Shown here piece by piece: positions 41,027 through 57,749 of a DNA stretch of 58,956 nt (position 1 is the first letter of the stretch; the number at the start of each line of letters is the position of its first letter). The notes under the pieces were generated by a model that did not search any database, had not been told where the DNA came from, and saw only the letters and a program-made list of their open reading frames with translations. Source of the DNA: Actinomycetota bacterium (GTDB taxonomy: Bacteria > Actinomycetota > Geothermincolia > Fen-727 > Anoxymicrobiaceae); assembly GCA_016927325.1 (NCBI GenBank), contig JAFGMY010000170.1, positions 1 through 58,956 on the forward strand. The letters are read 5' to 3'. The translations under genes were made by a program, and so were the position numbers.

Positions 41027-41398
41027 CAGCCTTATGACTCAGGGTGAAGCTCATAATGAAAATGGTTCCCGATTAAATCGGCCGCTAAACAATAAAGAGT
41101 CTTTTCTGTTCGTTGATGCTGTTCGATGTTGCTTCGGGCAAGGTGGCGATTCCAGGCAGGGGATCGAGGTTCTCCGCTTGATGTTTACCGGCCCGAAGAT
41201 TGGGAATTCGATAAATGCGTGAGAGCAGTAACTTATGGATCAGGATAAACATGTAGCACGGAGTTGACGGGCGGGAGATGCGGACAGGAGTGCGTAAGAA
41301 TACAGTCATGAGTGCCGTAATGCCCAATGAACCATGAACAGCGGCTGTGTGAATTCCCGGGTTCAAAATTTGTATGGAGTTGTCCGGATGGGAGAAAA

Positions 41399-42385
41399 AT
41401 GAAAGAGGCCCTTTTTTATGAACCGCTGGGCGGAAACAGGGTACACTGCCTGCTCTGCCCGCAAGACTGCGTTATCGCTCCGGGCAGGACGGGGTTCTGC
41501 AGGGTAAGGGTAAACAGGGGTGGCACTCTCTTCAGCCTGAACTATGACCGTGTAATGGCTGCCGGCATGGACCCGGTGGAAAAAAAACCGCTCTATCATT
41601 TCCACCCGGGTGCGGCAATATTTTCGATAGGCACCATAGGGTGCAACCAGCACTGTGATTTCTGCCAGAACTGGCAGATGCTCGAACCCGACGCTCCCGC
41701 TTCGGAGATGAGTGCTGAAACCGCGGTCCGGGAGGCGAAAGAAAGGGGGTCGACAGGGATAGCATATACGTATAATGAGCCGGGCGTATGGTACGAGTTT
41801 GTGATCGAGTGCTGCCGGCTTGTCAGAAATGAAGGAATGAAAAACGTTCTGGTGACAAACGGTTCCATCAACCCGGAACCTTTCTTACGTCTTGCGCCTC
41901 TCGTCGACGCGATGAATATCGACATAAAGTCCATGGAACCCGGCTTCTACCGGAAGATCTGCAAGTCGGAACTCGAGCCTGTGCTTTCCACATGCCGTGC
42001 CGCGAAGGCGGCGGGCATCCACCTGGAGATAACCAACCTTGTGATCCCCACACTCAACGACTCGGACGAACTCATATCAAAGCTCGTCGATTTTGTGGAG
42101 GAACTGGGGCCGGAGGTCCCGCTTCATTTTTCCTCCTATTTTCCAAGCCATAAGATGAGGATAGGGCCTACCCCGCTCTCATCCCTTTTGAGAACCGGGG
42201 ATATCGCCCGGAAGAAGCTCTACTATGTCTACCTTGGAAACGTTTCAGTTCATGAAGGTTGCGATACGCAGTGCCCCGGGTGCGGCAACACCCTCGTAAA
42301 GAGATGCGGCGCGGCGGCCTCGGTAACCGGAATCGGGGAAGGCCGCTGCCTGAACTGCGGCCGCACCGCGGACTTCATTCTCTGA
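41399..42385 (+). CDS. amrS: AmmeMemoRadiSam-system radical SAM enzyme
   Basis: FYEPLGGNRVHCLLCPQDCVIAPGRTGFCRVR N-terminal Cys motif, then the radical SAM CNQHCDFCQNW, and a C-terminal CPGCGN..C..CG. Start placed at ATG 41399. Confidence 0.8.
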   Translation: MKEALFYEPLGGNRVHCLLCPQDCVIAPGRTGFCRVRVNRGGTLFSLNYDRVMAAGMDPVEKKPLYHFHPGAAIFSIGTIGCNQHCDFCQNWQMLEPDAPASEMSAETAVREAKERGSTGIAYTYNEPGVWYEFVIECCRLVRNEGMKNVLVTNGSINPEPFLRLAPLVDAMNIDIKSMEPGFYRKICKSELEPVLSTCRAAKAAGIHLEITNLVIPTLNDSDELISKLVDFVEELGPEVPLHFSSYFPSHKMRIGPTPLSSLLRTGDIARKKLYYVYLGNVSVHEGCDTQCPGCGNTLVKRCGAAASVTGIGEGRCLNCGRTADFIL

Positions 42386-42597: not shown

Positions 42598-44316
42598 ATG
42601 TCGGACGGCTGCACCGGTTGTTTGCCTGTGGGGATAAGGTCAGTATCGGATCTTCAACCTGGCGACCATACTTGCTGCATCTACGAAAATGACGAGCAGC
42701 ACAGGGATCTCTTGACTTCATATATGCGTGTTGGTCTTGCCGAAAACGACAAGATAATTTATATCGTGGATGAACGTGCGGACAGAGTGCTGATAGAGTA
42801 TCTTGAACAGAAAAGAGTAGATCCCTACCCGTTTCTCGAAAGCGGGCAGTTGTCGTTTATGACCGCGGATGAAGCATACTTGCGAAACGGGAAGTTCGAT
42901 CCCGGGGAAATGATCGACCTTCTCCGCTCTGAAATGGGGATTGCGTTGAACGAGGGTTACCGCGCGCTGAGGGTAACCGGCGAGATGAGCTGGGCGTTGA
43001 AGGGATTACCGGGGTCGGAAAGGCTCATAGAGTATGAAGCCAGGCTCAATGAATTTTTTCCGGGCAGCGCCTGCATGGCGATCTGCCAGTACGATGGAAG
43101 AATATTTAATCCCGAGGTTCTTCTGAGTGTCCTCTCCACGCACCCGATTGCGGTTATAGGGGATGATTTTTTTGACAATTTCTACTACGTGCCGCCCGAG
43201 AAGTACTTTTCGGCCGAGCGTTCAAAGGCTGTGTACGAGCAGTGGGTCACCACGTTGAAAACTTATAATCACGCGTGCCGCGGACTTGAGGAGAGGGAGG
43301 GGGAACTCGTAGACTTGCTGGAGTCCTCCCTGGAGGGAGTGACCACCACCTCGCCTGAAGGTCGCTATGTTTTCGCAAACTCGGCCGCCGCCTCAATGCT
43401 CGGTTATGAAAGCCCTGTGCAGATGATAGGCAGGCACGCGTCCGAACACTACGGTTCCAGTGAGCTCAGGGGAAAAGTGATAACAGATCTCTTTGAAAAA
43501 GGGGAGTTGAGAAACTATGAAGCCACGGCCAGGAAGCTTGACGGGACTATCTTCCCGGTGCGCCTGAGCTCGACTTACAAGGAGGATGCGGACGGAAACG
43601 TCGAGAGCATAACGACTTTCTTTCAGGATATCACCGAGCAGAAGCGGGAAGAGGAGCTTAAAATGATGCGCGCGCTTTCCGAACACGTGATAGCTGAAAG
43701 GGAAAGGGAGCGAAAGGAAGTCGCAAGAGAAATCCATGACGAGTTTGGACAGGCCTTGAGCTGCATGAAGATGGATTTGAGCTGGCTGATCAAAAATCTT
43801 CCGCCTGGAAAACCGGAGGTTGCCGAAAAGCTCGAAGAGCTGAGCGAGCTGACCGAATCGAGCTTCGGCCGGATGCGGGACCTGGTAACCCGGCTGCGTC
43901 CGGCTGTTCTTGACAGGCTCGGCCTCGCGGCCGCGCTGGAATGGCAGCTCGAGGATTTCCGAAAGCACTCCGGTGTCGACTACGCGGTCAAAGGTGATCT
44001 CGATGAAGCCCTGGTCGATAAGAAAGACGAAATCGTTGTTTTCAGGATTATAAAGGAATCACTCACAAACGTTGCCCGTCATTCCGGCGCCGACAAGGTT
44101 GAGTTGTCGTTTGAGGAAGCAGGCGGCGGTTATATTTTCAGGGTCGCCGACAACGGCAGGGGAATTTCACTAACCGAGAACGATGGGACTTCCATGGGAA
44201 TCCTTGGCATGAGAGAGAGGGCGAGGGGCATCGGAGGAATACTTTCGATAATAGGAGAGGAAGGAAAGGGAACGGAGGTTATTTTGAAGCTTCCAGGCCG
44301 TGGCGGAAGCGGCTGA
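42598..44316 (+). CDS. Sensor histidine kinase: MEDS domain - PAS - HisKA_3 - HATPase_c
   Basis: MEDS-type start GDHTCCIYENDEQHRDLLTSYMRVGLAENDKIIYIVDE. PAS segment with FQDITEQKREEE. HisKA_3 H-box REIHDEFGQAL. N/G boxes LTNVARHS and DNGRGI..GMGILGMRERA. Confidence 0.85.
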   Translation: MSDGCTGCLPVGIRSVSDLQPGDHTCCIYENDEQHRDLLTSYMRVGLAENDKIIYIVDERADRVLIEYLEQKRVDPYPFLESGQLSFMTADEAYLRNGKFDPGEMIDLLRSEMGIALNEGYRALRVTGEMSWALKGLPGSERLIEYEARLNEFFPGSACMAICQYDGRIFNPEVLLSVLSTHPIAVIGDDFFDNFYYVPPEKYFSAERSKAVYEQWVTTLKTYNHACRGLEEREGELVDLLESSLEGVTTTSPEGRYVFANSAAASMLGYESPVQMIGRHASEHYGSSELRGKVITDLFEKGELRNYEATARKLDGTIFPVRLSSTYKEDADGNVESITTFFQDITEQKREEELKMMRALSEHVIAERERERKEVAREIHDEFGQALSCMKMDLSWLIKNLPPGKPEVAEKLEELSELTESSFGRMRDLVTRLRPAVLDRLGLAAALEWQLEDFRKHSGVDYAVKGDLDEALVDKKDEIVVFRIIKESLTNVARHSGADKVELSFEEAGGGYIFRVADNGRGISLTENDGTSMGILGMRERARGIGGILSIIGEEGKGTEVILKLPGRGGSG

Positions 44317-44382
44317 CCGGGCTTCAGCCTGCCCTGGGAATTCCTGATTTACGGCTTGATTTATCGGGAAAAGCTGCTTTAG

Positions 44383-45201
44383 TTATGAGCGTGAAAACTT
44401 TGATGCCGTGTCTCTGTCGGAAAAGAAGTCCCTTATCAGACCGCAGGCCCTGCTCTCTAACCTCGAAACCTGCATCTGGGAAATTCCGAGGTGTTTTGCC
44501 ACGGAAGCCTGGGTCCTCCCCGTTTTCATACGCAGTTCAAACACCTCCCTGAGAGATTCGGGCAGTTCTTCAACGGCCTGCTCCATCATGATGGCATCTT
44601 CCAGTTCGTCGAGGTGCGGGTCCCCGCGCCCGAGAATTGATCCCAGCTGGAACGAGCAGTCAGGGCAGGTGGGCTTGTCTATCGATAAGGGCGCGATAAA
44701 ATTGTCGAGGCAGCTTGCTTCCAGCAGAACCTTTTCCTCGATACCCAGTATTTCCGACAGATGAGCCGGGGTAGGCAGCGTGCCGTTCGCGCTCAGATAA
44801 CTCTGTTCCGCTTCTTTTATCACACTCTTGAGTTTCCACATTCTCCTCGGCAGCCTGATCATCTCTGCGTCGTCTCTGTAAAACTTCTTCAGTTCCCCTT
44901 CTATGTTGGGATAAGCGTAAAATTTGAAAGCGGAGCCTCTGTCGGGATCATAACGGCGTATCGCCTTCATAAGACCTACGGCGGCGACCTGGTAGGCGTC
45001 GGTATAAGGCAGCAGCGATGACTTGTATTTAAATGCGAGCCTGCCGAGCAGGTCCCCGTAAATCGAGAAGATGCCCTCGACCGCTTCCCGGTCTTCTTCC
45101 TCGATGGCCTTTTTAAGCAGTTTGCGCTCGCAACGGTTTCCGTGGGAACACTGTGAGACACCCGGACACTTTTCCTGCGAACAGCACCCTTCGTTTTTCA
45201 T
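44383..45201 (-). CDS. Group 3 sigma-70 family factor (SigB/SigF/SigG type) with a Cys-rich N-terminal extension
   Basis: Region 2 (LGRLAFKY..AYQVAAVGLMKAIRRYD) and region 4 (QASVAKHLGISQMQVSRLESRA). AAGGA lies 7 nt upstream of ATG 45201, which is 10 nt after the STAS stop codon. Confidence 0.85.
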   Translation of the reverse strand: MKNEGCCSQEKCPGVSQCSHGNRCERKLLKKAIEEEDREAVEGIFSIYGDLLGRLAFKYKSSLLPYTDAYQVAAVGLMKAIRRYDPDRGSAFKFYAYPNIEGELKKFYRDDAEMIRLPRRMWKLKSVIKEAEQSYLSANGTLPTPAHLSEILGIEEKVLLEASCLDNFIAPLSIDKPTCPDCSFQLGSILGRGDPHLDELEDAIMMEQAVEELPESLREVFELRMKTGRTQASVAKHLGISQMQVSRLESRACGLIRDFFSDRDTASKFSRS

Positions 45202-45211
45202 ACCGATTTCC

Positions 45212-45703
45212 TTAAGCACTGCCGTAGTTGTCAATGTTTTCCTCCTTTATGGAAAGGCACAGGTCGAGCCCGGTAAACGAAAACAACCTCCCGATCCGGG
45301 CGTTTTCGCAGTATACGAGAAGTCCGTTGCCGCTTGACGAAAGTACCTTATGGACCTCGACAAGGAGAGACAAGCCACTGCTGTCCATGAATTCGAGGCC
45401 GTTGAGATCGAGTATGAAACCTTTGCTGCCTGCCATGACCTTCTCGAGAAGGTAATCCTCAACCTGCTTTGCGGTCATGATGTCCAATTCTCCGCTGAGG
45501 CGGACGCAGGGGGTTCCGTCCAACTCTCCGGGTTTGATGACCACCCGGCTTCCCGATACCGGAAACCCGTTATTTGGCATAGACCGGTTATCATGTGGTG
45601 CCTGCCTCATGTCCCTGCTGGTTTTCATGATCACTCCATCCATTGTCCGGCCGGCTTCCGACAGTAAAAATCCTACAGGCAGGGCGGGTTGGGGGGTATC
45701 CAC
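45212..45703 (-). CDS. STAS-domain anti-sigma-factor antagonist (SpoIIAA/RsbV-like)
   Basis: VRLSGELDIMTAKQVEDYL...ILDLNGLEFMDSSGLSLLV, with the conserved phosphorylatable Ser context DSSGL. The real start is probably an internal Met (45580-45643). Confidence 0.8.
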   Translation of the reverse strand: MDTPQPALPVGFLLSEAGRTMDGVIMKTSRDMRQAPHDNRSMPNNGFPVSGSRVVIKPGELDGTPCVRLSGELDIMTAKQVEDYLLEKVMAGSKGFILDLNGLEFMDSSGLSLLVEVHKVLSSSGNGLLVYCENARIGRLFSFTGLDLCLSIKEENIDNYGSA

Positions 45704-45831
45704 GAATTCGCCAATTTCGCGTAGGGAAAATAACGTGATAAGGGTGGTTAAAAACGGCGGAGGTGTGTAGCGATATTGACTACAGGGGTATTTCGATAGA
45801 AATCATTAACCTGGAGGGAACTGCCGCCGGC

Positions 45832-46461
45832 TTACTCAATAAGACCGTTTTTCACTGCATAGTAGGTGAGCTCGGAGTCGTTTTTCATTCCCATCTTGTT
45901 GATGATGCGTTCCCGGTAGGTTCTTACGGTACTTGCGCTGATCGAGAGCTTTTCGGCTATCTCTTTAATCTCGAGACCCTGTGCCACCATCCTGATTACC
46001 TGCAACTCCCGGTCGGACAGCATCTCGTGGGGCATATCTACGGGTGTCTTATCAACCTGCGCCGCAAGCCGTTCGGCGACGGACTCGGTTATGTAGCGGC
46101 CGCCGGAAGCCACCTTGCGGATTGCGGAGACGAGTTCCCCTGAGATCCGGTCTTTGCTCAGGTAGCCCATGGCGCCGTTCTTGAGACACCGTACCCCCAT
46201 CTGGTCCTCCGGGTGCACGCTCAAGATAAGGACCCTCACCTGCGGGTAAGCCGACCTGACATCTTTCAAGACGTCGAGGCCGTCGCAGTCGGGCAGTTCT
46301 ATGTCCAGGACGAGCACGTCCGGCAGGGCTTTTCCGAGGAGCTTCTTGAGGTCGCCGTAATCCGCTGCTTCTCCAATGAGCTTCAACCCCGGTTCATTTT
46401 CAAGGACCTGCCTGAGTCCTTTTCGAACTATCGGATGGTCGTCGAGAATTTGTACTTTTAT
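45832..46461 (-). CDS. NarL/FixJ-family response regulator (REC plus LuxR-type HTH)
   Basis: MIKVQILDDHPIVRKGL, phosphoacceptor context VLVLDIELPDCDG, and HTH LSDRELQVIRMVAQGLEIKEIAEKLSISASTVRTYR. Confidence 0.9.
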   Translation of the reverse strand: MKVQILDDHPIVRKGLRQVLENEPGLKLIGEAADYGDLKKLLGKALPDVLVLDIELPDCDGLDVLKDVRSAYPQVRVLILSVHPEDQMGVRCLKNGAMGYLSKDRISGELVSAIRKVASGGRYITESVAERLAAQVDKTPVDMPHEMLSDRELQVIRMVAQGLEIKEIAEKLSISASTVRTYRERIINKMGMKNDSELTYYAVKNGLIE

Positions 46462-47082
46462 CATTTTCCAGGTGTTCTCCGCCATCATCTGCCAAAGAAT
46501 TGTCAACCTCGATAAATATACAGCTTCGGTAGCCTGAAAGCCACACAGGAAAGATGTGGACCGGCGGTCTGCCCGTAAACAATGAAAGGTATTTTACGCG
46601 CTCGATCGTATTTGGACCGATGTGCTCCTCAAGACCTCTTTACCGTTCTTTCCCGGCGGTTCGTCCGATCATCAGCCGGACGCTTTTTTCCTGGGGCGCC
46701 GGGCGGATTTCTCTTTCGGAGCCCCTTCGCCTTTCTTGTTTCCCTTGACCTGCCTGAGACCTATTGTTTTGAAGGGCGAAAACATTGATGTCAATAACAT
46801 TGCTAGAGCAGTTTTCTTGCAGGGGAATCTCTTTCACCCGTAGCTTTACCGGTTAGAGAAACAGCCTGCCTGTTCACCGTATCCGTTCCGTTTAGACGGC
46901 GTGCCGGCTGATGTGCCGGCCAAGCAGAGACAGGGTTGCGGCAATAAAAATGGATCCGGAGTTCGGAGCCTTCAAAGGTGGAGCGTTCTGTAGTAGCATA
47001 ATAGTCGGCAAACAAATGACTTATTTCTGTAAAAAGACTTGCAAGTCCAAATATTTCTTGCGGTATTGGAAGGGAGCCTGTC

Positions 47083-49548
47083 ATGAAAAAAGGGGAGTTC
47101 CGTAAGTTAATCGCGCTGGCCGCGTGTATAAGCCTCGTGCTCCTGCTGTTCCCGGCCATGGGTGCGTCGGCGGCTGAGTTCAACTGGACGATGGAAGCGG
47201 ACCAGGGAATAACCGATCCGAACAATTTCCACCTGGCATGCGGCGAAGTTTACCATGGCAGCCAGATGGTCTACTCTACAAATTTTTTAGGGCTGCCGGT
47301 GCCTGCAAATCCAACGGTACTTTATTCGTATGACGGGGCGCAGTTTACGCCGGTGGGTTCTCCCGGCTTCGGTGACGGCAATAACACCGGACTGCACCCG
47401 ACGGCGGTCTATCATGACCTTCTTTATGTCGGGACTGCTAACGGTACGACAGGAGCCGAGCTTTTCACCTGGAACGGTGCTGGAAACCCGTTGAAGGTAA
47501 CCGCGTCAACCGGTGGCTGGGGTGAGGGAGCGGGAAACGACACTATATTCCCGCAGGGTGTCGTCAACGACAAGCTGATCGTTACTGTTGCAAACCGTAC
47601 AGGGGCTGTTACAGGCGGCATAAGGATATATGAGTTTGACGGTACGGTATGGACACAACTGGTCGGGCCGACGGCTGCTGTTCCTTCCGGTTTCGGTGAT
47701 ACCAATAACGAAGCCGCCGCTCCAGGTGTCGTGCTGGGCGGGAAGCTTATCTTTCCCACACTAAATACCGCTACGGGTTTGGAGGTCTGGGAATATGACG
47801 GAACCAATTTTGTTCAGATTGGAGCTCCGGGTGCGGGAAGCTGGTCGGCAAACCAGACCGCCGGAACTGTTGCGCAAAATCCTGTATCCGGGACACTCTA
47901 TTTGGGCACGGGAGACGCGACAGGTACCGAGGGCTGCGAGATATGGGCCTTTGACGGCACTACCTGGATAAATGTTAAGGCAGGCGGCATAGACCAGGGT
48001 ACCAACGACATGTTCGTTCAGCCTTGCGTTAGTGGGAACGACCTTTATGTGGCCACCGCTAACTTCGCGGCGGGCGGTCGCGTATATAAGCTTGTTGGCG
48101 CCACATTCATGCCGCTTTCGCAACCGGGATTCGGCGTCGGCGCAGCCAACGCCGACATCACGATTGAAACATATCGCGGGAAACTGATAGGCACCACGTT
48201 GAACGCTGGCGCCGGCGGTCAGGTGTGGACGACTCCTATTCTTTCAAGCATCTGGTTTTTTGCCGAAGGCACCACTCGGAACAACCTGAACGACGGTTCC
48301 TATGATGAATGGCTCTGCATCCAGAACCCCGGTGCCAACGACGCTGATGTAATAATCACATACATGTTCTCCGACGGCACAACACAGACTCAGAACGTCC
48401 TTGTTGTGAAGGAGAGCCGTAAGACTATAAGCGTAAACGACGCGATAGGGGCAGGAAAGGATGTTTCGACCATAGTAGAGTCCAACTGGCCAATACTGGT
48501 CGAGAGGCCCATGTACTTCAGTTACCGCGGTAAATGGCCGGGCGGCCATATTGTAATGGGTGTCAACCAGCCGAGGGATAACTGGTTTTTTGCCGAAGGC
48601 ACCACCCGGAACAACCAGAATGACGGTTCTTACGAGGAGTGGCTGTGTCTGCAGAACCCGACCGCGGCAGACGCGGTGGTCGACGTGACTTACATGCTGG
48701 AAACCGGCGATACGGTAATAAAACAGTACGACGTGGGCGCCACCAGCCGCAGGACAATAGACGTTAATCTTGATGTGGGGGCGAATCACGACGTATCGAT
48801 TGCGCTCAACAGCAGTCAGCCTATAGTCGCCGAGCGCCCGATGTACTTCAACTACCGCGACAAGTGGACGGGCGGGCACAACGTTGTCGGGGCTCCGGGA
48901 CCGGCCAGGACCTTCTATTTCGCGGAAGGTACTACCAGGGACAATGTAACCGACGGCGCATTTGAGGAGTGGATCTGCATTCAGAATCCGGGCCTGGCCG
49001 AAGCAACAGTAAACATCACCTACTGGACTGCGAACGCGGGGACCCAGACCCAGACGGTGACTGTCGGGGCGACCTCCCGTCAGACGGTGGACGTTAAACT
49101 CCGGCTGGGCGCCGATGTGGATACATCGTTCAAGGTTGATTCCGACGAGCCCATACTGGTCGAGCGCCCGATGTACTTCAACTACCATAATGTCTGGCCG
49201 GGCGGCCATAATGTCATGGGTTGTCCCGGGCCTACTTCGAGTTTTTATTTCGCGGAAGGAACGACATTGCCTGAGTTCAATACTTACCTGGCTGTCCTTA
49301 ATCCCGGTACCACACCGGCCAATGTTACTTTCAACTATATGCTGGAGGGCGAACCGAACAAGACTGTATCTGTTGTAATCGATCCGGAAAAGCGTTACAC
49401 GCACAACGTGGCCGATTCAATCGGCTTGAACAAGAACGTTTCGGTTATGGTCCAGAGCGACCAGCCGATTGTCGCGGAGCGGCCGATGTACTTCGGGTAT
49501 CATGGTGTATGGCCCGGCGGCCACGACACACTGGGATACGGAATATGA
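47083..49548 (+). CDS. Secreted protein: signal peptide, beta-propeller-like N-terminal half, and four 110-aa C-terminal repeats
   Basis: Signal peptide KKGEFRKLIALAACISLVLLLFPAMGASA. Repeated blade-like segments (YSYDGAQF, YEFDGTVW, WEYDGTNF, WAFDGTTW). These are followed by four units of (W/F)(F/Y)FAEGTT...ERPMYF..(W)PGGH. Confidence 0.7.
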   Translation: MKKGEFRKLIALAACISLVLLLFPAMGASAAEFNWTMEADQGITDPNNFHLACGEVYHGSQMVYSTNFLGLPVPANPTVLYSYDGAQFTPVGSPGFGDGNNTGLHPTAVYHDLLYVGTANGTTGAELFTWNGAGNPLKVTASTGGWGEGAGNDTIFPQGVVNDKLIVTVANRTGAVTGGIRIYEFDGTVWTQLVGPTAAVPSGFGDTNNEAAAPGVVLGGKLIFPTLNTATGLEVWEYDGTNFVQIGAPGAGSWSANQTAGTVAQNPVSGTLYLGTGDATGTEGCEIWAFDGTTWINVKAGGIDQGTNDMFVQPCVSGNDLYVATANFAAGGRVYKLVGATFMPLSQPGFGVGAANADITIETYRGKLIGTTLNAGAGGQVWTTPILSSIWFFAEGTTRNNLNDGSYDEWLCIQNPGANDADVIITYMFSDGTTQTQNVLVVKESRKTISVNDAIGAGKDVSTIVESNWPILVERPMYFSYRGKWPGGHIVMGVNQPRDNWFFAEGTTRNNQNDGSYEEWLCLQNPTAADAVVDVTYMLETGDTVIKQYDVGATSRRTIDVNLDVGANHDVSIALNSSQPIVAERPMYFNYRDKWTGGHNVVGAPGPARTFYFAEGTTRDNVTDGAFEEWICIQNPGLAEATVNITYWTANAGTQTQTVTVGATSRQTVDVKLRLGADVDTSFKVDSDEPILVERPMYFNYHNVWPGGHNVMGCPGPTSSFYFAEGTTLPEFNTYLAVLNPGTTPANVTFNYMLEGEPNKTVSVVIDPEKRYTHNVADSIGLNKNVSVMVQSDQPIVAERPMYFGYHGVWPGGHDTLGYGI
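48253..49545 (+). repeat. Four tandem in-frame coding repeats with an exact 330-nt period
   Basis: The FAEGTT-encoding starts are at 48253, 48583, 48913 and 49243, each exactly 330 nt apart. Units 1 and 2 share long identical nucleotide runs at their 5' ends. Confidence 0.85.
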
Positions 49549-49818: not shown

Positions 49819-50520
49819 TTGATGAAACTGGATATCAAGGTGATGGAAAAAGAGCTCGACGGGCTTGTTGATGATAAGTATAAAGAAGGCATGAAGATGG
49901 CGGTCCCCACCACCTGGACGGTCAGAGGGGTGCGTGTGCCCCAGCTCAAGGAGATTGCAAAAGGTGTGGCCGGAAAGAAGAAAACCGAAGAAGATTACCG
50001 GGAGATAATGGAGTTTCTGGAAGCGGCTTTCGACAGGAAAGACCGGGAACTGGCGATTATTGGAATAAACACCCTTTATCAATACCGGAAATACTTCAAC
50101 CGGAACCTTACCGAAAAGATAAAGGTATGGACAGGAGAGGTTGCGGACTGGGAGATCTGCGACAATATCGCTTATATGATAATTCCCGAATTGATTTTGA
50201 AAGGTGTTTTTACAGGGGAAGATCTTATTTTTCTAAGGGACCACGAGAACATCTTCGCAAGAAGAGCTTACATCGTTTCACGGGTCAAGATGCTCAGAAG
50301 CGGATCCGGAGACACCGATGAAGTTTTGGAGGAAATATCGTTTTTTAACAGCGACAGGGACAAGTATATGATCAAGGCTGTTTCGTGGGCTCTCAGAAGC
50401 GCGATTTCGAGCGAACCGGAAGCTGTATCAGCGTTTATCGAGAAGTACAGGGATGAAATCCACCCTTTGGTGGTCCGTGAAGTTACCAACAAGCTTGAAA
50501 CGGGCAAAAAAAACCGGTGA
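49819..50520 (+). CDS. DNA alkylation repair protein (AlkD-like HEAT-repeat family, PF08713)
   Basis: 233 aa, all-helical, with RGVRVPQLKEIAK and AVSWALRS...VVREVTNKL typical of the family. Confidence 0.65.
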   Translation: MMKLDIKVMEKELDGLVDDKYKEGMKMAVPTTWTVRGVRVPQLKEIAKGVAGKKKTEEDYREIMEFLEAAFDRKDRELAIIGINTLYQYRKYFNRNLTEKIKVWTGEVADWEICDNIAYMIIPELILKGVFTGEDLIFLRDHENIFARRAYIVSRVKMLRSGSGDTDEVLEEISFFNSDRDKYMIKAVSWALRSAISSEPEAVSAFIEKYRDEIHPLVVREVTNKLETGKKNR

Positions 50521-50602: not shown

Positions 50603-52351
50603 GTGGTTGTGATGTTATTAAAAGATGATCTTGTCTTGCTTCACGCGCCGAGCGTTTACGACTTCAGGAAGATGCTCAGGGTACCCAGCCCCGTCGCCGA
50701 CCTGGTGCCCTCGGGTCCGGTGTTCGAGATGTACCCTGTCGGTTTCCCCTTTATGGGCGAGTACCTGGAGAGGCACGGGATAAGAACCCGAATTGTAAAC
50801 CTCGCGGTCCGGATGCTCGAGAACAGCCGCTTCGACGCCCGCAGGTTTATTTCACACTTGAAACCAGAGGCTTTCGGCATCGACCTGCACTGGCTGCCCC
50901 ACTGCCACGGCGCTATCGAGATCGCCAGGCTGTGCAAGGAGCTTCACCCGGAGATCCCGGTGATACTCGGGGGTTACTCGGCTACAATACTCCACCGGGA
51001 GTTGATGGAGGAGTACCCGGAGATCGATTTCATAGTACGCGGAGATTCCACCGAGGAGCCCCTGCGGAAGTTGATGTCATTCATCATTTCAGAAAACTGC
51101 GAAATCTCCTCGATACCTAATCTGGTCTACAGGAGCCGGATGGGAACGATAGCCGCAACCGGGCTCGAGACTGCACCCGCCGATCTGAGTTACCTGGGGA
51201 ACAGTTATGTTTATATGCTGCGGTCGGCCCTGAGGCACGCCGATATCCGTGGAATCAGGCCTTTTAAGGGATGGTGGTCTTACCCGATAACGACATCGAT
51301 CACCTGCCGCGGCTGTTCCCAGAACTGTTACTTTTGCGGTGGCGCGGCGTCAACGATGAAAAGCTGTCTTGGCAGACGAAAGGTATCGTTTAGAACTCCG
51401 GATAGCATCGGGCGCGATATCAGAACCATCAAGAACATAACCGGGGCTCCCGTCTTCATAATAGGCGACCTTATGCAGGGCGGGCGTGATTACGCGTGGG
51501 CGGTCCTGGAGGAGATCGGGAAAGCTTCTCCCCGCAACCACATTGTCTTTGAGCTTTTCAAACCGGCCCCGGTGGAGTTCTTTGAGAAGATAGCGGGAAA
51601 CGTGGCCAACTTTGATTTTGAGATTTCCCCTCAGACCCATGACGAGGAAATCAGGGGACAAGTCATAACACCCTACGGTAACCGGGAACTCGAGAATAAC
51701 CTCGAGTGGTGCCTGGAAGCGGGATGCGGCAAGTTCGACGTATTCTTCATGATAGGCCTTTCCGGACAGACGGCTGAATCGGTAATGGATACCGTAGACT
51801 ACTGCGATTACCTTCTGGAGAAGTTCGGCATCAGGCTGAACCCGCTTATAGGCCCGTTCGCGCCCTTCGTCGACCCATGCAGCCCGCTTCAGGTCAGTGC
51901 CGGGGAATATGGGTTCAAGTTGTTGTTTGAATCAGTTGAGGAACACCGCAGTGCCCTTACGAATCCTAATTGGAGAGACTGGCTGGGTTACGAGACGAAG
52001 TGGTTGAGCCGGCAGGGGATTGTAGATGTTACTTACGAAGCACTCCTCGAGCTTAACAGGATTAAAGGCAGGCATGCACAAATAAGCCCTGAGTATATGG
52101 AGAACATGGAAGCGATCCTCAGGGAGAACATCGTATTGCTTGGAAGGGCGGACAGGGCAATGGAGATCGGAGACCTGAAACGCAGGCGGGCTGAAATGGA
52201 AAAAGTAAAGATAGAAGCGGACGAACTCATGGACAGGAGCCTCATGGTCAAAGAGGAAATCGAGTGGCCGGTATCAGGCCCGCGTTTCCGGTACTTCGGC
52301 ATATTGAGGCTGTTGGTCTCAAGTTGCATTAACAGGGATGCCGCCGAATGA
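50603..52351 (+). CDS. B12-binding-domain radical SAM protein (class B; BchE-like / TIGR04190-like size class)
   Basis: N-terminal Rossmann-like B12-binding domain (FGIDLHWLPH..PVILGGYSAT..DFIVRGDSTEEP), then the radical SAM cluster CRGCSQNCYFCGG. 582 aa. Confidence 0.8.
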   Translation: MVVMLLKDDLVLLHAPSVYDFRKMLRVPSPVADLVPSGPVFEMYPVGFPFMGEYLERHGIRTRIVNLAVRMLENSRFDARRFISHLKPEAFGIDLHWLPHCHGAIEIARLCKELHPEIPVILGGYSATILHRELMEEYPEIDFIVRGDSTEEPLRKLMSFIISENCEISSIPNLVYRSRMGTIAATGLETAPADLSYLGNSYVYMLRSALRHADIRGIRPFKGWWSYPITTSITCRGCSQNCYFCGGAASTMKSCLGRRKVSFRTPDSIGRDIRTIKNITGAPVFIIGDLMQGGRDYAWAVLEEIGKASPRNHIVFELFKPAPVEFFEKIAGNVANFDFEISPQTHDEEIRGQVITPYGNRELENNLEWCLEAGCGKFDVFFMIGLSGQTAESVMDTVDYCDYLLEKFGIRLNPLIGPFAPFVDPCSPLQVSAGEYGFKLLFESVEEHRSALTNPNWRDWLGYETKWLSRQGIVDVTYEALLELNRIKGRHAQISPEYMENMEAILRENIVLLGRADRAMEIGDLKRRRAEMEKVKIEADELMDRSLMVKEEIEWPVSGPRFRYFGILRLLVSSCINRDAAE

Positions 52352-52418
52352 AGCACTTGAACGAATGCTGATGACGGATTAACCTCGCGGTGTAACAAGA
52401 AACGGTATTTTCATGGAG

Positions 52419-53909
52419 TTACGGCATGTCCGCCTGAAACTTACTTCCATATTTCTTGCAGATGGCCTGGACTGTTTCCCGGCCGGAAAGGGCGGAAGGC
52501 GGAAGTCCTCCACCCGGTTTTATCCATTGGCCCGCCATGTAGAAGTTCTCAAGCCCGGGGAGCGTATTAGGCATTCCCTTTATCATTAAGGTTGAGTTCT
52601 CTGTCGTAAGCAGCCAGCCCTCAAAGCTCCCCTTCCAGTTGCCGGTATACCGTACGTAGGTAACCGGTGTTGCCACATCGACTGTCTCGATGTCTTCCCT
52701 TATACCCGGAAAACGTTTCTCCATCTCAGCGGTGAAGATGCTTCCGACGCGTTCCTTTTCTTCCCTGTACATTTCTTCATCATCATGAAGTGCCTTCCAG
52801 TATTCATAGTCGGTTTCGATTATTGTCGTAATAACCGACTTTCCCGCGGGCGCCATGGTCGGATCGTAACAGAAGTGTTTATAGCTCATGCGGGAGATGC
52901 TCCTCCCGGCTATCCTGACGGGATACTCAAGAGGGAAACTGACTGAGTGTGGCTCCGGGGAAAGGTCTCTCTTCACACCAAGCGACACCTGAATGATCGG
53001 TGGGAACAAGGGCATATTCCTGTAGTATCCCCTGATGGTATCGTTGATAAACGCACCGTCCAGCATGTCGAATATTGTTGCGTGACCGTCCGCCGCGGAC
53101 ACCACGATGTCAGCTTTATGTTCAGTTCCGTCGGCAAGTCTCACGCCTGTCGCCTTTCCATCCTCGACAAGGATCTTTTCAACCCTTGACCGGTATGAAA
53201 TTTCACCTCCCAGATCGAGGTAACGTTTCTCAATCGCCTTCGCCATCTCGAGCGAGCCGCCGATGGGATAACCGGCGTTCCTCTCGTTCATCCAGCCCAG
53301 AGTGCTAATCATGCCCAGCACCGGGAACTTGAGAACGTCGAACGTAAGAGGGAATATGCTTCTCAGGAAAGGGTCCGTGAAGTTTCTGGAGTAGTCCTGA
53401 AGAGAGGTTTTAGCCCATTTCTTGAATCCCATCATCATTGGGGCCATCTTGAAAAGCATTGAAAAACCCTCGAGACCGCCCGGCTTATCGATAGGCGGGT
53501 CAAGTTTACCGAAGCGGCGGATGTTCTTTGTCAGTTCCTCTATTACCCGGGCGTCTTTGGGAGAGAGACTTTTTAAGTGTTCTTCGAACCGTCCTGCGTC
53601 GGAGTACAAGACAAGAGCCTTTCCTTCAGGACCTTCCACCCTCAGGAACTCTTCGTGATCGACGACTTTCCGGCCCTGCAAAGCCCCCAGTTCCATCCAG
53701 ACCCGATTAAAGGAGGTACCGGCCTTCGTGCCCAAAAGCCAGTGAACGCAGCCATCGAAGACATACCCGTTTCTGTTCCAGGAAGTACAAAGCCCCCCCG
53801 GAGCGTTGTGCATCTCAAATACATGCGTGTCATATCCGTTCATCCGCCCGTAGCAGCCGGTTGAAAGCCCGGCGATCCCCGCACCGATGATAACAATTGA
53901 CTCAGCCAC
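52419..53909 (-). CDS. FAD-dependent oxidoreductase of the phytoene desaturase (CrtI) / amine-oxidase family
   Basis: Dinucleotide-binding start IVIIGAGIAGLSTGCYGRMNGYDTHVFEMHNAPGG and the C-terminal family motif FYMAGQWIKPGGGLP. Confidence 0.85.
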   Translation of the reverse strand: MAESIVIIGAGIAGLSTGCYGRMNGYDTHVFEMHNAPGGLCTSWNRNGYVFDGCVHWLLGTKAGTSFNRVWMELGALQGRKVVDHEEFLRVEGPEGKALVLYSDAGRFEEHLKSLSPKDARVIEELTKNIRRFGKLDPPIDKPGGLEGFSMLFKMAPMMMGFKKWAKTSLQDYSRNFTDPFLRSIFPLTFDVLKFPVLGMISTLGWMNERNAGYPIGGSLEMAKAIEKRYLDLGGEISYRSRVEKILVEDGKATGVRLADGTEHKADIVVSAADGHATIFDMLDGAFINDTIRGYYRNMPLFPPIIQVSLGVKRDLSPEPHSVSFPLEYPVRIAGRSISRMSYKHFCYDPTMAPAGKSVITTIIETDYEYWKALHDDEEMYREEKERVGSIFTAEMEKRFPGIREDIETVDVATPVTYVRYTGNWKGSFEGWLLTTENSTLMIKGMPNTLPGLENFYMAGQWIKPGGGLPPSALSGRETVQAICKKYGSKFQADMP

Positions 53910-54132
53910 TTGAAACCTCCGATAAGATTAGACACCACAGTCTACTGCCTGCACCACAATGAGCTGCATGTCTGAATTGTATTATCATTCGGCTGTTAAC
54001 CGGAAGGGTTATGCGCGATTTTTCCGGATTGCGTCGGACCGGTAAAAAATCCAGGAAGGTAAAAACACCGTGCTGGAGCGCACGGGAATCGGGATGGAAC
54101 GGGATGTTTTACGGTTGAAAAGGAGAGTACTG

Positions 54133-55287
54133 CTAGGCAGGCTCAAAAGCGCATGCGATTCTGACATCTGTCAGTTGTTGCCAGTGGGCCAGGCTCTGTC
54201 CCCCGATGATCGATTCGTACAAGCCCTGGAGGGACCCGGCCAGAATATTAACGTCGTAAGGATTGTCGATAATGATATTCACTCTCAGGCCGTCAATCTC
54301 GAACTTGACCGGATTTCCCTGTCCGAGAAGCGGCAAGTCATTCAAGAACTCCATCAGATGTCCCGCCATTCTCTTTGTACCGTCCGTATCATTTCCAGTG
54401 ACGGGCCTGATAAAATTGCTATGATCAACTGTGTACTCTCTTACAGTGTCCATCAATATTTCCGAGGCGCCCTCTCCCAGCGATCCAGCCAGTTCCCTGG
54501 TTACCGTATTGATTGTATATCCGTCGAGAAATACCACCCTGGAATCTACCGAGGAATCGATGATGACCCCTTCCTCGACCCAGTTCAGACGGGAGAGCCC
54601 CTTCGGCGCGTCGCATCTGGGGCACCTTTCATGCTCCACCCTGCCGGAGACGACGGCAAGCGATCTTTTAAATATTGACGGAAACCAGATCGGATCATCG
54701 GTGGCCTCGAAAACCATTCTCTCTGAAAACTCTGAATGTTCACCCGAAGCCTCGGCTCTGAAGATATAATCGTTTTCCGTTTTCCTTTTCCATTCCACTT
54801 TGTAGGGTTTCAACTCGAGAAGCTCAAAGTTCCCGGCTGTTACCGCCGCGAGAAGGTTCGCGTTGAAAGGGTTCTTGATTTCCGCGATGCCATACTCACC
54901 AGGAACATATTCCAGGGTCTTTACATTACACATTCCTAACAGGCTTGCTACTTCGTTCGAGCGAATGAGAAGAAACCGCCTGACCGACTCAAGCCGGGAG
55001 AGCCTTTTCAAGCCGGGCACTTTGTCATAAAAAGGTTTATATACGGCCATGGTGGAATGGCGCTGAGCTTCGAAAGCTATCTCATCGACGGGTAGTTCCA
55101 GCTTCTGTTTGAAGACATCCAGGAGTTGGTTGATGAACCTGTTCTGTATGATCACGACCCGGAAGTTCGTTCCCCATGGCCAGGGATTCGCGGTGATTGT
55201 ACCGTTCTCGTGCCACTTGAACGCAATATTAACAAAGCGCGGTAGTCCGCATACTTTACAACGCTTTCTGGGTATATTTAATGCCAT
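54133..55287 (-). CDS. Hypothetical protein with two homologous modules, each opening with a Cys pair (possible V4R-like ligand-binding fold)
   Basis: Module 1 starts at RKRCKVCGLPRFVNIAFKWHENGTI. Module 2 starts at HERCPRCDAPKGLSRLNWVEEGVI. Both continue with similar spacing to a hydrophobic/Gly-rich end (LLAAVTAGNFELL and ILAGSLQGLYESI). The V4R assignment is tentative. Confidence 0.45.
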   Translation of the reverse strand: MALNIPRKRCKVCGLPRFVNIAFKWHENGTITANPWPWGTNFRVVIIQNRFINQLLDVFKQKLELPVDEIAFEAQRHSTMAVYKPFYDKVPGLKRLSRLESVRRFLLIRSNEVASLLGMCNVKTLEYVPGEYGIAEIKNPFNANLLAAVTAGNFELLELKPYKVEWKRKTENDYIFRAEASGEHSEFSERMVFEATDDPIWFPSIFKRSLAVVSGRVEHERCPRCDAPKGLSRLNWVEEGVIIDSSVDSRVVFLDGYTINTVTRELAGSLGEGASEILMDTVREYTVDHSNFIRPVTGNDTDGTKRMAGHLMEFLNDLPLLGQGNPVKFEIDGLRVNIIIDNPYDVNILAGSLQGLYESIIGGQSLAHWQQLTDVRIACAFEPA

Positions 55288-55387
55288 CTCTCCGGTCCGT
55301 CTTCAGGTGCTGCAAGCAACAATAGTATAAGTGACCACATTCACCCGTGTGTGAGCAAAAGGTTCATGGAGTACGACCCAGAAGCCG

Positions 55388-55618
55388 CTAGGCCAGGTTC
55401 CTGATCTTCTGGGCGACATCAGCCCCGGTCTGGGGGTCCGCGAAGAAAGCTACGGACTTTTCAATGTGAGTTGCAAGTTCCGGAAGTTGGGCTGGTGTCA
55501 GCTTGTCAGGTTCACAATCGATGAGTTTGCAGTTCTTTTTTACGGTTGCCTTTGCAATGAACTCCCCTACAGCGGAGGTCAGAATCTTCTCAACCTGCCT
55601 GACCAGTAATTCGGCCAA
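55388..55618 (-). CDS. Small (76-aa) helical protein, hypothetical
   Basis: Compact ORF between two supported genes on the same strand. Amphipathic helical sequence. No motif recognised. Confidence 0.4.
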   Translation of the reverse strand: MAELLVRQVEKILTSAVGEFIAKATVKKNCKLIDCEPDKLTPAQLPELATHIEKSVAFFADPQTGADVAQKIRNLA

Positions 55619-55809
55619 GATGGACCTCCCGTATAGCCATGTCCGTACAAGATATCAAGTGTTTCACCGTTGATAATAAAGCATAACAATATAAACCACA
55701 TGGGGCAAGTTCTTAACCGGCCTTCAGTTACTTCCCGCGGCACCATAATTGCTGCCTGCATAAAAGAGGGCGGTTTTTAACCCGCTAGAGTATTACTTAG
55801 ATGTTGACG

Positions 55810-57150
55810 TCAGGAACCCTCCCGCAAAACTGCCTTAGCGGCGTCTTCACCGCTTCTCAGTGCTCCCTCAACACAGGAAATCAGAACCATGTACTCACCC
55901 GCGAAGTGCAGTCCTTTAATGTCATCCTTGTGATTGTTCTTGAAGCAGTACATGGCCGGGAACTGTCCCGGAGGCTCCAGGCATATAGCCTCATCCCACC
56001 GCACGACCTCGGCAAGGTCCGGTTTATCGGTCATGTTTGGAGCAAAACGCTGAAGCTCCCTGATCATGGCTTTGACAATTTCGTCGTCTGACAGCTTGTT
56101 CATCTTTTCCGCCGTCCTGCCCCAGGTGCATGAGTGCGAGAGGCCGGCGCCCGGAGGTGCGAAAGCCGCGGATTTGGCGCTGCTGTCGTTGATGCACTGA
56201 AGGAAGCTGTTGGCCGACTTTGGAAGCATTACCGCGTACCAGTTATCGGGGAGTATCCTTTCTTTTGTGCCGAAAATCACGTGTACCGTCGAGCTGTATT
56301 TCACTTTCTCGAGAGGTTTGCGCATCTCGTCGGGAAGGTCCGGAATAATTTTCCTGGTTACACCGGCGGTGGTGGTGCAGATCACGTGGTCCGCTTCTAC
56401 GAAGCCGTCTTCAGTCTCGATACCTTTGACTTTCTTGTTTTCTATTACGATCCTGTTTACGGGGGACTTGAGCTTGATGTTGTCCTTGAGCTTGTCGTAC
56501 ATCGCGTTGCACAGCGATCCGGTACCCTTGTCCAGCAGTATGATTCCTCTCGTGAGTCCCATCAGTGCGATCAGATGGGGGATCGACACGTCTTCCGCCT
56601 CGCCGAGAGTGAGGGTTGCAACCATAGGACGAAGAATATGGTCGAGGGCTTTTTCACCGCCGTGCTTCCGCGCGAAGTCCGCGACGCTGGTATCACCGAG
56701 GTCAAGGAGTTCGTCGAAGCGGAGATCATCGTAATTCAGTCGCAGGTAGCGCGATATCATGGCTAACCCTATCATCGCCATCTGTGGATAAGCCATCAGG
56801 GGGAGACCCCTGAAGCCGAGTATGTTCTTGATATTATTAACTATCTCAGAAGGTTTCATCGAGGCACTGATACCGTAAGACTTGCCGTCCCTCCAGATAG
56901 CACCGGCCGCCACAAACTTCTTGATGTCCGGGCCGAGTCCGAATTCTTTTATAAGCCTGATTTGCGTTTCGCATAACTTGCCGATAACCTGTGCCCCGGT
57001 ATCGACTATATAACCGTCCTTTTCGTAACAGGAACAGCGGCCGCCAGCGAAATCGGCGGCTTCATAGGCGGTTACTTCAACGCCGTTCTTAACCAGCATA
57101 TTCGTTGCGGCAAGACCTGCCGCTCCTGCGCCCACGATGACAACTTTCAT
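55810..57150 (-). CDS. FAD-dependent oxidoreductase (protoporphyrinogen oxidase HemY / CrtI-like amine-oxidase fold)
   Basis: MKVVIVGAGAAGLAATNMLVKNGVEVTAYEAADFAGGRC (GxGxxG plus E..GGR) and C-terminal GLHFAGEY...ALRSGEDAAKAV. Confidence 0.85.
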   Translation of the reverse strand: MKVVIVGAGAAGLAATNMLVKNGVEVTAYEAADFAGGRCSCYEKDGYIVDTGAQVIGKLCETQIRLIKEFGLGPDIKKFVAAGAIWRDGKSYGISASMKPSEIVNNIKNILGFRGLPLMAYPQMAMIGLAMISRYLRLNYDDLRFDELLDLGDTSVADFARKHGGEKALDHILRPMVATLTLGEAEDVSIPHLIALMGLTRGIILLDKGTGSLCNAMYDKLKDNIKLKSPVNRIVIENKKVKGIETEDGFVEADHVICTTTAGVTRKIIPDLPDEMRKPLEKVKYSSTVHVIFGTKERILPDNWYAVMLPKSANSFLQCINDSSAKSAAFAPPGAGLSHSCTWGRTAEKMNKLSDDEIVKAMIRELQRFAPNMTDKPDLAEVVRWDEAICLEPPGQFPAMYCFKNNHKDDIKGLHFAGEYMVLISCVEGALRSGEDAAKAVLREGS

Positions 57151-57236
57151 GCGGTCCCTCCTTGCGGAAATAATTTATGTGGTAATTCTATATTAACTCT
57201 CATGCTGAATTCTAAGTATTAAATGATTATTAATTG

Positions 57237-57749
57237 TTATGATTCCAGAACCGCCGCCGCGGCCTCTTCGCCGCTCCTTACAGCGCTTTCCATCGAAGAA
57301 GGCAGTTTCAGGTACGAGCCGGCAAGGTGAAAGCCTTTAATGTCCCGGAGATGATTACTGTTCATTTCATGAACTGCGGCGAGCTTCAGGAGTTGACAGT
57401 ATGTCTTCGGCGGAACTCCCCGGAATTTGAGGTCGAAAGGAATGCTCTTCAACTGGTAAGCGATTCCGCCCGGAGCGTGGAGGCAGTGGGCTTTACCTTT
57501 TTTCCATATTGCACCCTGGAAGGGGACAGGTTTTACTTCACTGCCCATATCCAGATCGTTGCACAGACCTAGAGTGTGTGTCCAGCGCTTGACCGCGAAC
57601 TGGGCACCGAGATCGAAGGTATATCCTTCCTTGTGATAACTGCCGACCCTGCCGCCGGCCACGTTTCTCGACTCGAAGGTTGTCGCCTCAACTCTGTTTT
57701 TCCGAAGCACACGTGTGGCAGCCAGGCCGGCTACAACAACAACCCTCAT
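57237..57749 (-). pseudogene. Decayed tandem paralogue of the 55810-57150 flavoprotein (GxGxxG lost; large internal deletion)
   Basis: The 170-aa ORF aligns to both ends of its neighbour. MRVVVV----AGLAATRVLRKNRVEATTFESRNVAGGRV aligns with MKVVIVGAGAAGLAATNMLVKNGVEVTAYEAADFAGGRC. DIKGFHLAGSYL..AVRSGEEAAAAVL aligns with DIKGLHFAGEYM..ALRSGEDAAKAVL. About 270 central residues are missing. Confidence 0.6.

Follow-up and report, generated by a model that had tools for sequence, protein, structure and literature searches.

A lineage-specific flavoprotein gene cluster converging on a TIGR04190-family radical SAM gene in uncultured Actinomycetota

The ring synthases of glycerol dialkyl glycerol tetraethers (GDGTs), GrsA and GrsB, have been described as B12-dependent radical S-adenosylmethionine (SAM) enzymes with deeply divergent clades. 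The tails of archaeal lipids are, as cited in another report (10.1101/2025.10.20.683597), modified by a CrtI-family enzyme, the hydroxyarchaeol synthase Has. The locus analysed here holds a class B, cobalamin-binding radical SAM enzyme (hereafter rSAM) beside uncharacterised flavoproteins predicted to bind flavin adenine dinucleotide (FAD). It lies towards one end of contig JAFGMY010000170.1 (assembly GCA_016927325.1, an actinomycetotal genome assigned to the Anoxymicrobiaceae), whose 58,956 nucleotides are called the window below. On the minus strand stand, in 5' to 3' order, the remnant R170, the flavoprotein F446, the small protein S76, the tandemly duplicated protein C384 and a second flavoprotein, F496; the rSAM gene converges on F496 from the other side (Table 1). 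As an earlier note on this DNA had held, no system with these genes has been described.

The order F446-S76-C384-F496-convergent rSAM recurs on five contigs (the window, L008, L009, L010 and L176), within the reach of each, and the rSAM is the convergent neighbour on all four that show that side. The order is kept even on contigs where the identity of C384 has dropped to 49–53%, and gene content varies among the flavoproteins only, L009 carrying an extra copy of F496 and the window a decayed second copy of F446. Synteny with the closest relative, L008, is lost just past a DUF5719 gene, and there a HAMP gene lies on the opposite side of the cluster. For comparison, the flanks (±10 kb) of the rSAM gene at 80 other genome loci, 12 of them from Actinomycetota, were searched by tblastn with all cluster proteins. 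Co-conservation elsewhere, which had been set beforehand as a test, was found outside the one clade at none of these 80 rSAM loci, at none of 80 F496 loci and on none of four contigs with distant C384 homologues. The check on gene order that the earlier note had called for is thus answered positively on five contigs of one clade and negatively in phylogenetically distant genomes, and the arrangement is not a widely conserved pathway.

Our preference, which is a tentative one, is to regard the locus as a young, clade-specific accessory module of uncultured, deep-branching, anaerobic Actinomycetota that acts on a hydrophobic substrate and has the rSAM as an independent neighbour. The core of such a module would be the minus-strand set, namely tandem F446 flavoproteins (one of them decayed here), S76, C384 and F496, probably acquired or expanded within the clade. 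S76 and C384 have diverged from counterparts with other gene contexts in sister lineages and would have been recruited beside orphan FAD enzymes; both are clade-specific variants, of 76 and 384 residues respectively. F446 and F496 would oxidise, reduce or isomerise the hydrophobic substrate, for example a planar aromatic compound or a chain of the polyprenyl or polyene type, while C384 would bind it as carrier or sensor and S76 would act as the small helical partner of C384. The supposed role of C384 is consistent with Foldseek, which sets its modules among sensors and carriers of small hydrophobic ligands. The rSAM, an older, class-wide gene of the TIGR04190 family, would probably act independently on an isoprenoid-type chain and merely abut the module. 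We infer a hydrophobic, isoprenoid-type substrate as the most economical guess, because the enzymes are of the CrtI/PPO type, the fold of C384 is of the V4R/Bet3 type, and the rSAM family has isoprenoid associations.

Table 1. Features of the cluster and its immediate surroundings in the window, with sequence identity to the window across the clade contigs
Feature	Description	Positions	Strand	Length, sequence or match	Identity across clade contigs
rSAM	class B, cobalamin-binding radical SAM enzyme	50603-52351	+	582 aa (ORF list)	74-82%
Spacer	between convergent stop codons of rSAM and F496	52352-52418		67 bp	
F496	FAD flavoprotein, uncharacterised CrtI/CrtISO-like subfamily	52419-53909	-		65-88%
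Conserved block	upstream of F496	53956-53990	-	GAATAATAATACAATTCA...	
Hairpin	GC-rich hairpin and T-run, terminator-like	54068-54085	-		
C384	tandem duplication of a module of ~190 aa, V4R/H-NOX/Bet3-type fold	54133-55287	-	384 aa	49-80%
S76	four-helix small protein, diverged extra copy of a core 77-aa family	55388-55618	-	76 aa	82-96%
F446	FAD flavoprotein, amine-oxidase superfamily	55810-57150	-		74-97%
R170	internally deleted F446 paralogue, probably non-functional	57237-57749	-	170 aa	
AlkD-like	HEAT-repeat protein	49819-50520	+	Pfam DNA_alkylation PF08713, 103.5 bits	

All six open reading frames (ORFs) that the earlier note had listed were recovered at its coordinates, as were its two spacers, of 67 bp between the convergent genes and 223 bp between C384 and F496. 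Its domain assignments also proved correct against Pfam and NCBIfam, with B12-binding and Radical_SAM domains in the rSAM and Amino_oxidase/NAD_binding_8 in F496, F446 and R170. It had seen no recognisable core genes for tetrapyrroles or isoprenoids, and none was present among the 38 window ORFs scanned, a set that begins after the first ~15 kb; nor did these ORFs include a prenyltransferase or a polyprenyl synthase. Scans of the window for tRNA genes and Rfam families gave no matches, and the GC content of the cluster (0.50–0.52) equals that of the rest of the window. The named homologues of C384, S76 and the rSAM come from metagenome-assembled genomes (MAGs) of uncultured Actinobacteria/Actinomycetota, for example Geothermincola, Solincola and their relatives.

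F496 has a Pfam Amino_oxidase score of 75.8 bits and aligns over its full length to crtI_fam (TIGR02734; 120.2 bits, cut-off 238.1) and to the carotenoid isomerase model (TIGR02730; 129.8 bits, cut-off 586.9), below both cut-offs. Its nearest solved structures, all at E~1e-11, are 3ka7 (an uncharacterised oxidoreductase of M. mazei), 4rep (CrtD-like) and 4dgk (CrtI). An exhaustive search returned 982 representative clusters at E<=1e-30, and more than 150 full-length relatives at 35–52% identity. Around relatives of 41–56% identity at 80 metagenome loci, no other cluster gene was found at any locus, and no neighbour family recurred in more than five; members of the F496 subfamily are solitary, uncharacterised genes. 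The Shine-Dalgarno sequence of F496 is GGAGG, and about 50–70 nt upstream of the gene lies the block given in Table 1. Between the window, L008 and L009 this block hardly varies, while the remainder of the spacer has diverged; the block resembles a promoter or operator specific to F496.

F446 has a much higher Amino_oxidase score in Pfam (199 bits). It reaches 93.0 bits, in two stretches, against proto_IX_ox/HemY (TIGR00562), just under the cut-off of 97.85, together with 93.2 bits against HpnE (cut-off 283) and 128 against PRK07233 (cut-off 252), and is, as far as profile scores can tell, equidistant from HemY/protoporphyrinogen oxidase (PPO) and HpnE. Its matches in the PDB are to PPO and phytoene desaturase (PDS), weak and mostly confined to the FAD-binding N-terminus. 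R170 matches residues 1–137 of F446 at 37% identity and residues 396–442 at 51%. It is composed of 135 N-terminal and 47 C-terminal residues, some 260 central residues having gone, and lacks four residues inside the GxGxxG motif; its Shine-Dalgarno sequence abuts the ATG. R170 is an internally deleted, probably non-functional paralogue of F446, and the description of it as a decayed flavoprotein paralogue stands, since it keeps only the ends of F446 and its GxGxxG motif is disrupted. Because L176 carries an F446-like gene where R170 stands (the contig end leaves its last 105 residues), the ancestral state was probably two tandem F446 paralogues.

The two halves of C384 can be aligned over their whole length (24% identity, E=2e-6) and so represent a true internal duplication. 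The two CxxC pairs recur in 29 homologues, in which each module starts R-C-x-x-C and ends N-P-[FY]...A-G...G..E; the proposed architecture of two Cys-pair modules is thereby confirmed. In the confident AlphaFold (AF2) model (mean predicted local distance difference test, pLDDT, 83.9; predicted template modelling score, pTM, 0.85), phenol-sensor domains from PoxR, DmpR and MopR take the top 13 places among the Foldseek matches of the modules in the PDB, at probability 1.0 and E 1.7e-4 to 7e-3. H-NOX and palmitate-binding Bet3 follow, the matches overall having E 1.7e-4 to 1e-2 and target-normalised template modelling (TM) scores of 0.5–0.63. The query 'V4R-like?' raised by the earlier note is accordingly answered in the affirmative for the fold and in the negative for the family: none of 29 family members matches Pfam V4R (PF02830), even at E<=10. 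Nor did C384 match any Pfam or NCBIfam family, or any PDB sequence in a profile search; the CxxC segments of the family gave weak zinc-finger-type matches only (Pfam). The 29 homologues share no invariant histidine able to ligate haem.

The C384 family is tiny, with 31 clusters in 5.8 billion proteins, and every named member comes from a MAG of an uncultured member of the Actinobacteria/Actinomycetota. The variant of the present clade has 384 residues, with a linker insertion of 14. Distant homologues (31–39% identity) were found on four distinct contigs, on three of them among thyA, nitroreductase and DUF5719/YkuD genes and on the fourth, L003, in an unrelated context; on none of the four do the flavoproteins, an S76 gene or the rSAM accompany them. 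On these three contigs (among L001, L005–L007 and L011) they lie next to DUF5719 or YkuD-DUF5719 genes, downstream of thyA-nitroreductase, with a SAM methyltransferase gene directly downstream in L001. L003 also holds a second, very divergent paralogue (311–1378; 24% identity), followed by a 4Fe-4S protein. The window, too, has a DUF5719 gene, 4.6 kb from C384. It encodes an 821-residue, secreted-looking protein (47083–49548, plus strand) with DUF5719 and ASRT matches and about four internal repeats of the module '...FFAEGTTR..ND G.. EW.C.QNP ... ERPMYF...'.

S76 belongs to a family of 140 homologous clusters at 60–95% identity, with a mean column identity of 72%. Its AF2 model (pLDDT 88) has four helices and no match in the PDB (best E=1.2), and the protein has no Pfam or NCBIfam family. 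The canonical copy, of 77 residues (S77), is found in the order FtsK-77aa-MCP-like-YajQ-MiaB-PgsA, followed by cinA (L093–L095, L177), where MCP denotes methyl-accepting chemotaxis protein. It stands always immediately upstream of the membrane MCP-signal-domain gene and is extremely conserved across deep-branching Actinomycetota; no cluster partner lies beside it at any of the four loci. Because the canonical copy is present in addition to the cluster copy in one MAG, JW738, the source of the L008 cluster, S76 is an extra paralogue. Its descent from an MCP-paired core protein suggests a function in signalling or as a partner protein, not in biosynthesis. A relationship between C384 and the MCP-like protein that accompanies the 77-residue form was considered and rejected, the two being unrelated.

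The rSAM passes the equivalog cut-off of TIGR04190 (B12_SAM_Ta0216) with 556.5 bits against 500, over model positions 1–527 of 554. It matches PF02310 (B12-binding) with 51.4 bits and PF04055 (Radical_SAM) with 48.3 bits, and 24 homologues all keep the cysteines of its CX3CX2C motif, C235, C239 and C242. Three other identities were rejected on score: BchE (TIGR02026, 35.6 bits, cut-off 481), HpnR (46.8 bits, cut-off 650) and HpnJ (27 bits, cut-off 578). The likening of this enzyme to BchE therefore holds for its size class and not for its identity. The public protein set starts it at ATG 50612, three codons after GTG 50603, to give 579 residues; all homologue alignments back this as the probable true start, and no clear Shine-Dalgarno sequence precedes either codon.

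The rSAM family is large, with 6925 clusters at E<1e-20. The 12 nearest genome matches are all from Actinomycetota, at 50–58% identity and in other gene contexts; Thermodesulfobacteriota, Chloroflexota, KSB1 and Zixibacteria follow. Archaeal relatives at 44–48% come from Nitrosotalea, Methanosarcinales, Syntrophoarchaeum and contigs labelled 'Halobacteria', and the homologues in Nitrosotalea and Syntrophoarchaeum pass TIGR04190 with 631 and 619 bits. Homologues of F496, F446, C384, S76 and the AlkD-like protein were found beside the rSAM at none of the 80 other loci surveyed. The rSAM is thus an old gene, class-wide in these Actinomycetota, whose adjacency to the cluster is lineage-specific; because it is 50–58% identical to the rSAMs at 12 other actinomycetotal loci in other contexts, it is taken as ancestral and as probably independent of the flavoprotein module. 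It is moreover convergent with F496, and co-transcription is therefore excluded.

Elsewhere the TIGR04190 gene keeps different company. In 18 of the 80 loci it adjoins a MenA-like UbiA prenyltransferase gene, mostly 0–40 bp away or overlapping. Such loci include L027, L036, L047, L052, L054, L062, L063, L065, L070, L082 and L087, and the pairs occur in MAGs of KSB1, Dehalococcoidia, Zixibacteria, 'Cytophagia' and deltaproteobacteria and in one Methanosarcinales MAG. Two of five MenA-like neighbours tested pass the menA model, and models of digeranylgeranylglyceryl phosphate synthase give just 35–40 bits; the pairing is a hint that the bacterial 'Grs homologues' act on a quinone or a polyprenyl aromatic. 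In Anaerolineae/Chloroflexota the family sits within a different conserved context, a MoxR(AAA_3)-rSAM-DUF58 arrangement (L040, L059, L060, L061, L064, L067, L068, L074, L079, L084–L086), and in Solincola-type Actinomycetota MerR regulators recur beside it. A DJ-1/PfpI gene lies immediately upstream of it in L013 (1392–1910) and L024 (5852–6373); the window has a member of that family at 40481–41026 on the minus strand, 10 kb from the rSAM. Solincola-type contigs L017 and L019–L022 carry, about 8–9 kb upstream of the TIGR04190 gene, a second B12-binding radical SAM gene of ~510 codons, non-TIGR04190 and weakly BchE/HpnJ-like, adjoining genes for a DAO flavoprotein, a SoxA3/Fer4 protein and a Pyr_redox_2 protein. 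This combination was considered as a parallel to the present locus and rejected, since the radical SAM enzyme is of a different family and the opine/sarcosine-oxidase-type DAO/Fe-S/Pyr_redox set is unrelated to F446 and F496.

Several observations weigh against a functional module. The five minus-strand genes lie 86–223 bp apart, each behind a Shine-Dalgarno sequence of its own; F496 is further preceded by a conserved element of its own, and a hairpin with a T-run lies 48 nt after the C384 stop (fold z=-3.4). Each family is found without the others elsewhere: no partner was seen at any of 80 loci for the rSAM, any of 80 for F496, any of four contigs for distant C384 or any of four loci for canonical S77. 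The five contigs are moderately related (F446 74–97%, rSAM 74–82% identity), so their shared order may reflect ancestry, and among the scanned window ORFs none defines a substrate. As for the signals themselves, the hairpin sits in a 48-nt insertion unique to the window, counts from promoter and terminator scans of the window lie within those of shuffled controls, and the 67-bp spacer shows no structure beyond shuffled controls on either strand. The evidence that the cluster is a system at all is modest and, as it stands, the locus is an ordinary lineage-specific neighbourhood.

These observations lead directly to the possibility that the adjacency is coincidental, that is, that a stand-alone rSAM for lipids or quinones, solitary orphan oxidoreductases and a signalling or sensing pair of S76 and C384 happen to share a rearrangement-poor stretch in close genomes. 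All partner families are indeed solitary or differently linked elsewhere, and every gene has its own Shine-Dalgarno sequence and spacer, F496 also its own upstream element. Unrelated genes are conserved alongside the cluster as well, AlkD-like in L008 and L009 and DUF5719 in L008. An ancestral proximity of C384 to DUF5719 persists in the window, at 4.6 kb. Moreover, the usual partner of S77 is MCP-like and the fold of C384 is of sensor type. Chance alone nevertheless sits awkwardly with an order that survives to 49–53% identity of C384 while synteny breaks immediately outside in the nearest relative, with a gap of only 14 bp between C384 and the F496 orthologue in L010, and with clade-specific, diverged variants of S76 and C384 that appear together with the flavoproteins. 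We consider coincidence somewhat unlikely.

At the other extreme, all six genes, the rSAM included, might belong to a single pathway that tailors an isoprenoid lipid, a quinone tail or a tetrapyrrole; in it the rSAM would perform C-C or C-methyl chemistry, the flavoproteins would desaturate or saturate, and C384 would serve as a V4R-like carrier. This is improbable in our view, for all that the rSAM is the convergent neighbour on four of four contigs with that side visible, that TIGR04190 members occur in GDGT-producing archaea, and that a MenA-like polyprenyltransferase beside the rSAM in 18 of 80 loci makes an isoprenoid substrate plausible. The modification of archaeal lipid tails by CrtI-family Has, as cited in 10.1101/2025.10.20.683597, lends it a precedent; F446 falls just under the HemY cut-off (93.0 against 97.85), and the fold of C384 is H-NOX-like. 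On the other hand, in 80 other genomes, the 12 of Actinomycetota included, the 10 kb on either side of the rSAM hold no homologue of a flavoprotein, C384 or S76, so that the rSAM without flavoproteins has already been seen at locus level, and here it is transcribed convergently. The scanned window ORFs include no prenyltransferase, polyprenyl synthase or tetrapyrrole gene, the rSAM is no member of the BchE family, and C384 lacks an invariant haem-ligating histidine. The joint functional link that the earlier note drew through the whole cluster finds support in the order on five contigs; it does not extend comfortably to an rSAM that is TIGR04190 rather than BchE-like, convergent, and class-wide in other contexts, nor to S76, which derives from an MCP-paired family.

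A bolder form of the same idea is that the clade holds an island for tailoring isoprenoid chains, in which a Grs-type rSAM cyclase and the CrtI/PPO-type flavoenzymes would work on one polyprenyl substrate, the chain of a membrane-spanning lipid or a menaquinone tail, handed over by C384 and S76. TIGR04190 is probably the GDGT ring synthase family, as its taxon distribution suggests, with homologues from producers of ring-bearing GDGTs falling under the model; literature searches returned no statement that places characterised GrsA or GrsB there. Genes for tetraether synthase or ether lipids were found neither among the scanned window ORFs nor within ±10 kb of the rSAM at the 12 other actinomycetotal loci. 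Such an island is a long shot; if it is real, no ring-forming lipid or quinone pathway that depends on Grs would have been defined genetically in bacteria before it.

To return to the accessory module that we tentatively prefer, if its minus-strand genes cooperate, they would introduce two undescribed families, a tandem V4R-fold protein with CxxC knuckles and a highly conserved four-helix protein of 76–77 residues, both serving alongside orphan flavoenzymes of the CrtI/PPO type in a deep-branching, anaerobic actinobacterial group of which little is known. TIGR04190-type rSAMs, for their part, are common in anaerobic bacteria, with relatives in at least 596 species genomes, and occur also in archaea that produce ring-containing GDGTs; the frequent joining of the bacterial rSAM genes in operons with a MenA-like prenyltransferase gene is a more promising handle on the bacterial 'Grs homologues' than the cluster in the window.

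The surroundings of the cluster are mainly regulatory and metabolic. The AlkD-like gene lies 82 bp upstream of the rSAM on the same strand; the adjacency is kept in L008 (76% identity) and L009 (67%), and at none of the 80 loci compared does the rSAM have an AlkD-like neighbour. Positions 42598–46506, shortly upstream of the DUF5719 gene, form a dense regulatory block encoding a MEDS-PAS-HisKA_3 histidine kinase, a sigma-70 family protein, a STAS-domain protein and a LuxR-type response regulator, and the window also encodes HAMP proteins and an acyl-CoA dehydrogenase. A second radical SAM gene (41327–42385, plus strand) encodes an enzyme of the AmmeMemoRadiSam system (TIGR04337, 282 bits, cut-off 220). 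Divergent from R170, a HAMP gene of the layout transmembrane (TM)-sensor-TM-HAMP starts at 58076 on the plus strand and is cut at the contig end, 58956, for which reason the ORF list lacks it; it is 42% identical to the L008 HAMP gene that lies between AlkD-like and DUF5719 genes. A tandem duplication of the same TM-sensor-TM-HAMP module makes up a protein of 648 residues (30318–32264, minus strand).

The components can be set beside the closest described systems. With BchE, the anaerobic cyclase of Mg-protoporphyrin monomethyl ester, the rSAM shares the class B radical SAM type and a similar length, at a score far below the BchE cut-off. F446 resembles HemY (CgoX) and HpnE alike as a full-length Amino_oxidase protein with near-equal scores; it differs in falling under both cut-offs and in having neither hemH/hemQ nor hpnC/hpnD nearby. 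F496 shares with the CrtI/CrtD/CrtISO phytoene-desaturase family, archaeal Has included, a full-length model alignment and the FAD Rossmann motif, whereas its scores are far under the cut-offs, the scanned window ORFs include no crtB, crtE or other carotenoid gene, and its subfamily is one of solitary genes. Each module of C384 superposes, in the predicted model, on the small-ligand-binding folds of the V4R/XylR_N sensors (PoxR, MopR and DmpR; BchJ), of H-NOX and of TRAPP Bet3. Unlike the V4R/XylR_N/H-NOX systems, C384 is a tandem protein with an N-terminal CxxC knuckle in each module; it lacks an AAA+/HTH output domain as well as any invariant histidine to ligate haem. With GrsA/GrsB and the TIGR04190 'Ta0216' family, finally, the rSAM has in common the N-terminal B12-binding domain, the radical SAM core with CX3CX2C and a length of ~570 residues, but its host is bacterial, and bacterial members of TIGR04190 often pair with a MenA-like prenyltransferase.

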